Origin: a virus
Taxonomy: Duplodnaviria; Heunggongvirae; Uroviricota; Caudoviricetes
Direction: 5' to 3' (one strand)
DNA length: 11,155 nt
Virus record (IMG/VR): IMGVR_UViG_2675903609_000003
Below, piece after piece: positions 8,461 to 8,752 of this stretch. The position numbers and the translations under genes were made by a program. Numbering within the stretch: position 1 is the stretch's first letter; each line of letters starts with the position of its first letter. The notes beneath the pieces were generated by a model, which had not been told where the DNA came from, made no database searches, and saw only the letters and a list, made by a program, of their open reading frames with translations.

Positions 8461-8466
8461 GTCAGA

Positions 8467-8645
8467 GTCTTTCAGTCTGCGATGATGGGAAATCCCGGAG
8501 TGACTGAAAGACGTTTAAGTTATGAATGATCGCCTTTTTTTGCAAAATTGCTGTGCAGAAATACTAACCTTCGGGCGTGCGATCATTCATAAGCACTCTG
8601 CTTTTATTCCGATTAACTGTGGGTGGTTTGTTGGATAGAGTGCTT
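8467..8645 (+). repeat. three consecutive perfect inverted repeats (long hairpins) between tRNA array and holin
   Basis: IR1 GTCTTTCAGTC 8467-8477 / 8502-8512 (11 bp); IR2 TTATGAATGATCGC 8520-8533 / 8579-8592 (14 bp); IR3 AAGCACTCT 8591-8599 / 8637-8645 (9 bp). Confidence 0.5.
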
Positions 8646-8752
8646 TCCTTACTGTATATATCGTTTCGCCCGCTTTTGCGTTTTTTTCTTTTCAAATCCC
8701 TTTCATTTCTCAGTGTAAAACTACGCCATCCGTTATTTGCGGAGGTGAGGCT

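Follow-up and report, generated by a model that had tools for sequence, protein, structure and literature searches.

A conserved structured RNA between the tRNA array and the holin gene of lambdoid prophages

Described RNAs of prophage late leaders and tRNA operons

Several structured non-coding RNA modules have been assigned to the interval between the Q antiterminator gene and the lysis genes of lambdoid prophages, where they are encoded on the strand of the late operon. These include StxS, the pR'-tR' transcript of Stx phages, PasD1 and PasD2, STnc100 (RF02076) and IsrJ (RF01393). Such late-leader sRNAs end in an intrinsic terminator that is read through by Q-modified polymerase, and they are mosaic modules that are shuffled horizontally. 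PasD is abundant in enteropathogenic E. coli (EPEC) lysogens, has been confirmed by northern analysis and depends on Hfq for its stability (Zhu et al., bioRxiv 10.64898/2026.05.13.724894; PMC8550237); STnc100 is reported to be its structural relative (Zhu et al.). EPEC prophages also encode the intergenic sRNAs PasA, PasB and PasC. PasA and PasC adjoin holin-lysozyme genes, with PasA being listed on the strand opposite the holin in the source table (PMC8550237), and PasB sits among tail genes.

Two further points of comparison are found at the ends of tRNA clusters. The sRNA sponge 3'ETS-leuZ is the trailer of the E. coli tRNA operon glyW-cysT-leuZ; it lies between the last tRNA of the operon and the terminator, and it is released by tRNA 3' processing. 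The tRNA cluster of phage T4 encodes the small stable RNAs species 1 and 2 (rnaC/rnaD), which are structured RNAs located at the cluster end and are co-transcribed and processed with the tRNAs. Finally, the put RNA of phage HK022 is formed by two irregular stem-loops that abut without a linker (PMC9378689), and put RNAs of HK022 and HK639 are positioned in a phage operon leader before terminators.

In the current study, we describe an RNA element that shares attributes with each of these systems. Our best reading, which is based on analogy, is that it would belong to the known class formed by prophage late-leader and tRNA-trailer RNAs. It resembles the late-leader sRNAs in its placement, strand and mosaic surroundings, but it matches none of them in sequence or structure and is joined to a tRNA array, at its 3' end, and not to pR'. 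Like PasA, PasB and PasC, it is intergenic in a prophage, and like PasA and PasC it can adjoin lysis genes, which distinguishes it from PasB. The resemblance to 3'ETS-leuZ (named in the data of PMC8550237) concerns location and the presumed route of release, given that 3'ETS-leuZ is ~50 nt long and nearly unstructured apart from its terminator, whereas the element would be ~180-230 nt in length and carries three conserved hairpins. The T4 RNAs belong to a different phage group, and no sequence similarity to them was found in a search of the phage collection. With put RNA the element shares two adjacent irregular stem-loops and a place in an operon leader, but it is found in late rather than early leaders and coexists with Q. 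Phage HK639 carries both a put RNA and the element.

The element constitutes a conserved structured RNA family that is absent from Rfam and undescribed in the literature that we searched. A covariance-model search against known RNA families had been proposed in a first-pass annotation of this DNA; when Rfam 15 was run on the window (the whole stretch of 11,155 nt analysed here) at E values up to 10, no family matched the element. The best scores within 8461-8752, for sR38 (12.0 bits, E = 6) and STnc540 (12.8 bits, E = 9.3), are far below the gathering thresholds. The element was also never matched in the HK639 leader (E up to 1) or in 15 related loci (gathering threshold). In the related loci, the Rfam matches were restricted to neighbouring tRNAs, STnc100 and IsrJ, which shows that STnc100 and IsrJ occur in the same late leaders as the element. 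Membership in STnc100, IsrJ/IsrK, C4, AgvB/AsxR or Esr41 was ruled out, with no match close to a gathering threshold, and the STnc100 model run on the window and on the HK639 leader does not match the element. Identity with PasA, PasB or PasC was ruled out by blastn (word size 7) against the E2348/69 loci, which returned only chance matches of 10-15 nt, and homology with put RNA was ruled out because the putL-like RNA annotated in HK639 (34187-34312) is not recognized by R1, our covariance model of the element. A full-text literature search with six conserved stretches, in both orientations and in DNA and RNA spelling, yielded only an unrelated primer match, and no description of the element was found in the literature on HK639 and antitermination, tRNA-trailer sRNAs, or lambdoid tRNA, holin and sRNA loci.

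Locus and architecture of the element

The window represents the late-control region of a lambdoid prophage, and the region of interest is 100% identical to a RefSeq locus of E. coli CFSAN029787. On the + strand, replication genes are followed by ninH, the Q antiterminator gene (7570-7950, annotated as Q in the identical RefSeq locus), a tR'-like terminator, four tRNAs, a gap of 292 nt (8461-8752) and a holin gene, after which come a 209-aa ORF, lysozyme and Rz. The tR'-like intrinsic terminator located 3' of Q (8037-8064, + strand) has a 9-bp GC-rich hairpin followed by U6 (-18.5 kcal/mol, z = -3.9) and is predicted to close a short pR' leader transcript. The tRNA array (8150-8460, + strand) was identified by ARAGORN, by Rfam matches scoring 56-70 bits and in the RefSeq annotation. 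It comprises a tRNA with a CAT anticodon (tRNA-Ile by RefSeq annotation), Arg-TCT, Thr-TGT and Gly-TCC. The holin ORF (8753-8968, + strand), present in the ORF list and in the RefSeq locus, is of class II with a dual start (MKSM). The gap had been judged to lack a convincing ORF, and this holds true: only mechanical ORFs of the program-made list overlap 8461-8752, and homologues of the region vary by indels of 1-2 nt.

The conspicuous feature of this gap in the first-pass annotation was a series of three back-to-back perfect stems of 11, 14 and 9 bp. A repeat finder recovers exactly these, namely three 100%-complementary inverted repeats within 8461-8752: repeat 1 (8467-8477 / 8502-8512; 11 nt with arms 24 nt apart), repeat 2 (8520-8533 / 8579-8592; 14 nt with arms 45 nt apart) and repeat 3 (8591-8599 / 8637-8645; 9 nt with arms 37 nt apart), of which the latter two abut with a 2-nt overlap. 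The null model consisted of 2000 dinucleotide-preserving shuffles of the 292 nt. In these shuffles, perfect repeats of 9 bp or longer have a mean number of 0.049; a single repeat of at least 11 bp is present in 0.35% of them, one of at least 14 bp in 0.05%, and three or more repeats in 0 of 2000. The three stems are thus far beyond chance. RNA folding, which had been suggested as a check, gives -89.1 kcal/mol for the + strand of the region (z = -4.07, with 0 of 200 shuffles equally good), compared with a z of only -1.90 for the - strand.

The repeats, the predicted fold and the covariation described below agree on three stem-loops on the + strand. SL1 (8467-8512) has an 11-bp stem around a conserved loop (UGCGAUGAUGGG...CCCGGAGU) that includes a small inner GGG/CCC hairpin, and its fold has an energy of -22.5 kcal/mol (z = -3.5). 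It begins 7 nt past tRNA-Gly in the window and is an optional 5' module, found in 64 of 96 unique contexts; in the loci compared, the element starts 1-7 nt past the tRNA 3' end. By eye, a kink-turn or C/D-box in the SL1 loop is unsupported (the sR38 match has only 12 bits).

SL2 (8520-8592) is formed by a basal helix, of 14 bp in the window and 14-16 bp across the family, that closes a three-way junction with two inner hairpins. This basal helix is the most widely retained part of the element. At three loci (L227, L238 and L170) the basal helix and SL3 are kept but another hairpin takes the place of the SL2 interior, and in L227 and L238 the result is a single continuous hairpin of ~30 bp. The motif UUUUGCAAAAUUGCUGUG in an SL2 inner hairpin served as bait in our first pattern scan, and its invariance among the matches of that scan therefore reflects ascertainment bias; in a second scan, baited with SL3, the motif varies.

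SL3 (8591-8645), a long hairpin, abuts SL2 without a linker. Its 9-bp lower helix is separated by an internal loop from the upper helix, in which the nearly invariant sequence GGGUGGUUUGUUGGAU is located. Together, SL2 and SL3 make up the conserved core of ~131 nt (8517-8647, + strand) recognized by R1. Partial variants of this core exist: the L005 type retains SL2 and has a different third hairpin, and the copy in Salmonella phage Fels-1 retains SL2 alone. In two copies on Klebsiella plasmids the SL3 upper-helix sequence is altered, and from our reading of the alignment part of the upper-helix pairing appears to be kept. Across mosaic backgrounds, near-invariant sequence is found in the SL3 upper helix and along both strands of the SL2 basal helix. 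In the model, most of the best-conserved G/U-rich stretch is engaged in base pairs, an unusual state for a seed. When the sequence is inspected by eye, neither a GcvB-like G/U seed nor a CsrA site is supported, the GGA of the latter being enclosed in a helix. No complementary target was found in the window, where the reverse complement of neither of the two best-conserved stretches occurs at any other place.

Covariation, strand and distribution

An alignment of homologous prophage regions had been proposed as a way to look for compensatory changes, and such changes are found in 12 core pairs and in four pairs of SL1. The core was examined in 25 non-redundant homologues (1019 pair cells), and controls were made by sliding the 3' partners by 1-3 columns. 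Standard pairs are formed in 96.2% of the pair cells, compared with 33-49% in the slid controls (n = 25), and changes on both sides affect 12 pairs (45 cells), compared with 1-7 pairs (1-22 cells) in the controls. On each of five measures, 0 of 500 shuffles match the observed value. The SL2 basal helix is 96.8% paired, with compensatory changes in four pairs, and five of the eight pairs of the SL3 lower helix show compensatory changes. For SL1, where 21 distinct homologues were available, 94.6% of cells are paired versus 35-59% in slid controls. The view that these palindromes are non-coding is supported, and the stems are conserved with compensatory changes.

The changes are also specific to one strand. 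G·U pairs account for 125 cells and A·C combinations for 16, the reverse strand would pair in only 84% of cells, and the alifold energy is -37.5 kcal/mol on the + strand versus -12.5 kcal/mol on the reverse complement. The excess of G·U over A·C together with the alifold asymmetry indicates selection on an RNA of the tRNA and late-operon strand, and not on duplex DNA. The element exhibits compensatory and G·U-compatible changes on a single strand only, as is generally the case for structured RNAs. We are nearly certain, on comparative evidence, that the element is a + strand RNA structure maintained by selection.

Within the window, R1 yields a sole strong match at 8517-8647 (128.2 bits, E = 7e-27), and the next best score (15.1 bits) is antisense over the same site. 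When the whole HK639 genome was searched with filters off, a single strong match was obtained at 44573-44703, which is the homologous place. The HK639 copy is 75% identical and spans all three hairpins; it is located 3' of Q and tR', after one tRNA and the 3' half of a tRNA-Gly, and an annotated terminator lies directly 3' of it. The full-length 292 nt are also found in four E. coli phage genomes, and the Fels-1 copy is partial.

The element is present in 540 of 5426 complete E. coli genomes (~10%), always in chromosomal records, at a median of one place and a maximum of five places per genome. An RNA carried by approximately one-tenth of complete E. coli genomes thus has neither an Rfam family nor a name. 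Carriers include ST131, APEC and neonatal-meningitis isolates as well as Shigella. The core is known from lambdoid prophages of six enterobacterial genera, and beyond Escherichia and Shigella it occurs in genomes of Enterobacter hormaechei, Citrobacter sedlakii, Yokenella and Phytobacter. In addition, two Klebsiella IncFIB plasmids carry divergent copies that adjoin STnc100, in a neighbourhood free of lysis genes and tRNAs. A further ~150 instances came from pattern scans that covered viral contigs, genomes and metagenomes. Three matches in non-enterobacterial genomes are attributable to chance, as are the matches from a 16-mer scan of the collections, where 0 of 30 loci fit the covariance model. 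A pattern scan of the collections for the Klebsiella type gave no match. The covariance model and alignment provide a possible starting point for a new RNA family.

Upstream flanks, downstream flanks and Q types all vary among loci, as is characteristic of a mosaic module. Regardless of these differences, the element is always on the operon strand, 3' of various Q types and 5' of various lysis genes or morons, and a Q gene of some type is present in every element-bearing locus that was examined.

Transcription unit and possible functions

A tRNA scan of 18 loci showed that in 14 of them a same-strand tRNA ends no more than ~165 nt upstream of the core; the arrays vary in composition. The 3' end of a tRNA-Gly lies directly 5' of the element in 64 of 96 unique contexts, such that the element is placed directly 3' of the last tRNA of the array and on the same strand, as is a trailer of the 3'ETS type. 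In some loci it is preceded by an ORF or by STnc100 and not by a tRNA.

The tRNAs had been suspected of having a promoter of their own, and comparison among loci supports this view. In the window, a promoter scan identified a putative σ70-type promoter (TTTGCA-18-TATTAT) at 8111-8140 on the + strand, 9 nt before the first tRNA. A putative σ70 promoter with a GC-rich discriminator is located directly 5' of the first tRNA in 10 of the 14 loci examined (TTGCAT or TTGCGT, a 17-nt spacer, then TATCAT or TATTAT, with the discriminator 8-9 nt before the tRNA), and it is common to loci whose sequences further upstream are unrelated. It is absent from HK639. From these sequence features, we infer that the tRNA promoter is active.

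At the other end of the element, a predicted intrinsic terminator is found 9-40 nt past SL3 (median 20) in 67 of 96 unique contexts. These terminators are of several unrelated sequence types and frequently occur as two in tandem. Among the 29 contexts where a strict scan detects no terminator, 15 carry a weakened hairpin of the E. coli type, three have near-intact terminators that the scan missed, and 11 lead directly into another ORF or unrelated sequence and lack a terminator-like hairpin. Counted by what comes next, a moron ORF or unrelated sequence is found in 14 of the 29. The existence of these 29 contexts means that the element is not always at a transcript 3' end. Considering the conserved promoter and the terminators jointly, the element probably forms part of a tRNA transcription unit whose normal end lies shortly 3' of it.

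A T-rich tract ahead of the holin ribosome-binding site had been recorded in the window, and it is indeed present at 8674-8692. Comparison with relatives identifies it as the tail of a decayed terminator, of which a relic (8668-8692, + strand) remains. Relatives carry GCCCGC-TTTT-GCGGGC, GCGGGT or GCGGTT at the same place, with a 6-bp GC hairpin in the intact form. The E. coli-type terminators can be arranged in a series, GCCCGC-UUUU-GCGGGC, -GCGGGU, -GCGGUU and -GCGUUU, throughout which the total length is constant. The window has GCCCGC-UUUU-GCG followed by U7CU4, leaving a 3-bp stem with a predicted energy of -3.3 kcal/mol, versus -13.7 kcal/mol for the commonest intact form. This -GCGUUU form is common to the window, the species-representative genomes of E. 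coli and Shigella flexneri, and a viral contig (L010). The proposed barrier against read-through from the tRNAs into the holin is thus present in the family, as judged by terminator predictions, in the form of a separate terminator, and it appears to be largely lost in the window copy. Erosion of the terminator in the window and in many E. coli copies would be odd if a defined 3' end matters.

Our preferred explanation, for which we consider the case evenly balanced, is that 8461-8692 is the structured 3' trailer of a prophage tRNA operon within the late-gene leader, and that it is probably released as a stable small RNA. This is the fallback of the first-pass annotation, a structured sRNA, which has become the best reading. 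Transcription would begin at the tRNA promoter (8111-8140) or, at induction, at pR' with Q-modified polymerase, and it would cross the four tRNAs, the optional SL1 and the SL2-SL3 core. In most relatives, polymerase would then stop at the classical intrinsic terminator 9-40 nt beyond the core. Processing of the tRNA 3' end would free a folded RNA of roughly 180-230 nt, and this would most likely be a stable small RNA that binds another RNA or a protein. At induction, Q-modified polymerase would pass the terminator into the holin and endolysin genes. Other late-leader modules of lambdoid phages (StxS, PasD/STnc100 and IsrJ) and the tRNA-trailer sRNA 3'ETS-leuZ behave comparably. That the RNA is released as a separate molecule and works in trans is inferred, and we regard a trans-acting small RNA, which is proposed by analogy, as a plausible outcome that falls slightly short of an even chance. 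Late leaders as a whole appear from sequence comparisons to be chains of modules, each consisting of a structured RNA plus a terminator, including the pR'-tR' RNA (IsrJ-like), STnc100/PasD, the tRNA cassette and the element. Should the element prove to be a released small RNA, it would bring a tRNA-trailer type into the growing group of late-leader sRNAs through which prophages rewire host regulation in lysogens.

The main rival is a cis-acting processing or stability module that sets the half-life of the lysis-gene mRNA, which we consider rather unlikely. The hairpins might form the protected 5' end of the lysis or late mRNA after excision of the tRNAs by RNase P and RNase E, or the long SL2 helix might be cut by RNase III, which would separate the tRNAs from the mRNA. 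A start 1-7 nt past the tRNA 3' end, constant placement on the operon strand ahead of lysis genes or morons, and the wide retention of the basal helix all accord with such a role, as do the ~30-bp continuous SL2 hairpins of L227 and L238, which are of a size suitable for RNase III, and the ~15% of unique contexts that run directly into an ORF or unrelated segment without a terminator-like hairpin. However, a protective or cleavable hairpin leaves the near-invariant sequences of the SL3 upper helix and SL2 basal helix unexplained, and the one or two strong terminators directly after most copies imply that without Q there would be no mRNA to protect. Moreover, the two Klebsiella plasmids retain the element with no lysis genes or tRNAs in the vicinity. 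A related and more doubtful proposal is that the SL2-SL3 core represents a novel cis-acting RNA class whose target is the machinery of transcription or decay. By binding RNA polymerase or a factor for termination or processing, it might insulate the lysis genes from the constitutive tRNA promoter and still let Q-modified complexes through; alternatively, it might serve as a dedicated RNase III/E gate for the timing of lysis. Abutting stems, independence from downstream sequence and strict placement before late genes make this reading compatible with the data. If the element acts in cis, it bears on how lambdoid prophages tolerate a constitutive tRNA cassette a few hundred bases before the holin and endolysin genes, and the natural series of terminator erosion is a ready allelic series for that question.

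The remaining candidates are of lower merit. A put-like or EAR-like function, in which a nascent two-stem RNA binds polymerase and alters termination or pausing over the late operon, is very unlikely in our estimation. The two irregular stem-loops that abut without a linker recall HK022 put RNA (PMC9378689), the element would act whatever the downstream context, several terminators follow it within a long operon, and HK639 is a known user of put RNA. Nevertheless, R1 finds no similarity to the putL-like RNA of HK639, there is one copy per genome, and all element-bearing loci examined have a Q gene. Antitermination behind a conserved promoter would also express holin and endolysin in lysogens, whereas selection keeps strong terminators. 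The first-pass annotation proposed the three hairpins themselves as candidate terminators that Q-modified polymerase bypasses; we judge this reading, in which they stop or pause polymerase coming from the tRNA promoter, highly improbable. Their placement between a constitutive-looking promoter and lethal lysis genes is suggestive, and another barrier would be useful in the window where the classical terminator is crippled. The anatomy of a terminator is lacking, however: the arms are separated by 24-45 nt, the stems are rich in A and U, and no U-tract follows, given that GUUUAAG comes after SL1, SL2 abuts SL3, UCCUUACUG comes after SL3, and the sole U-run (8681-8692) follows the separate 3-bp relic hairpin. 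A terminator scan was empty in 8461-8752, and the separate classical terminators right after SL3 in relatives would make termination by the hairpins redundant. The three hairpins are the architecture of the RNA itself, not termination signals. We give still less credence to a DNA-level feature (operator-like palindromes or a miniature inverted-repeat element) or a lysis-gene riboswitch. The palindromes are perfect in the window copy, and the conserved inverted termini and replaceable interior of SL2 resemble a small mobile element. A protein-binding DNA palindrome, which had been offered as another option, is nonetheless disfavoured by the G·U excess and the poorer pairing of the reverse strand; for a mobile element, the copy number is low, and no target-site duplications were noticed in an unsystematic look. 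The conserved loops and covarying stems are reminiscent of an aptamer, but the downstream sequences are wholly different among lineages (unrelated terminators or an ORF), which excludes a conserved switch mechanism.

The sequence between the element and the holin ORF exhibits features of its own. The stretch 8646-8720 is pyrimidine-rich and G-poor, and it could serve as a Rho entry site. Two hairpins are predicted at the holin start (8721-8765, + strand; -15.9 kcal/mol). One of them would sequester the holin Shine-Dalgarno sequence (8741-8750), and the other contains both start codons of the MKSM dual start (8753 and 8762). Given the erosion of the terminator, the lysis genes in the window would be shielded only by the sequestered ribosome-binding site of the holin and possibly by Rho. 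By analogy with the sdi structures of λ S and S21, these hairpins probably serve the translational control of the holin and are not part of the RNA element. A comparable hairpin adjacent to the Shine-Dalgarno sequence is found in other leader types.

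Companions and interruptions of the conserved RNA element

STnc100 (RF02076), a separate late-leader RNA family, is a recurrent companion of the structured element and can be located on either its upstream or its downstream side. The association is found in phages HK639 (L001 3254-3459) and Fels-1 (L184), at the homologous loci L079, L061 and L067, and on two Klebsiella IncFIB plasmids (L185/L186 2730-2905), where the pair is retained with IS remnants on either side and neither phage genes nor tRNAs close by. One viral contig, IMGVR_UViG_2851668853_000001, from which both L082 and L137 are derived, carries an element interrupted by an insertion sequence between stem-loops SL2 and SL3. 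In two deposited phage genomes (ON470583.1 and ON470580.1), a 'hypothetical protein' is annotated across the element. Given that homologues exhibit indels and compensatory base-pair changes, we judge this annotation most likely to be a spurious ORF call.

The tRNA arrays and their promoter

Directly 5' of the first phage tRNA gene lies a conserved σ70 promoter whose discriminator is GC-rich, whereas sequences farther upstream are unrelated between loci. By sequence, this promoter is evident in the window (8111-8140) and in L007, L017, L039, L040, L068, L086, L170, L176 and L179; HK639 is without it. The GC-rich discriminator is a characteristic shared with stringently controlled stable-RNA promoters, and its conservation together with the σ70 promoter implies that prophage tRNAs would be expressed in lysogens in a constitutive, growth-rate-tuned manner.

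The tRNA content of the arrays varies (Met/Ile2, Arg, Thr, Gly, Phe, Glu), and several arrays (L017, L039, L067, L170) include tRNA-like genes to which ARAGORN assigns two-base anticodons ('tRNA-???'). Despite these differences, the 3' end of most arrays lies close upstream of the element. The loop of SL1 (window 8478-8497; GAUGAUGGG-AAAU-CCCGG) is similar to the variable-loop and T-arm segment (8425-8447; GAUGAUGCGGGUUCGAUUCCCGC) of the neighbouring tRNA-Gly; SL1 may have originated as a decayed copy of a tRNA.

The post-element terminator and the holin start

Natural copies of the terminator that follows the element (window 8668-8692, with equivalent sites in L008, L010, L013, L014, L030 and others) form a graded series that differs in the 3' arm (GCGGGC, GCGGGT, GCGGTT and GCGTTT) while the overall length stays the same; the window carries the weakest of these forms. 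The G/C bases adjoining the U-run appear to have changed stepwise to T, a pattern that may reflect either prophage decay or selection favouring leakier termination.

Two hairpins are predicted at the holin start (8721-8765), the first sequestering the Shine-Dalgarno (SD) sequence and the second containing the two AUG codons that make up the MKSM dual start. This arrangement is sdi-like, as in λ S and S21, and L007, which has a different leader type, carries a comparable hairpin adjoining its SD. Farther downstream, the identical RefSeq locus is annotated with a ParD-like/ParE toxin-antitoxin pair after the Rz gene (about 10805-11155, ParE being cut by the window end) and with a hypothetical ORF of 209 aa (8972-9601) inserted between the holin and lysozyme genes.
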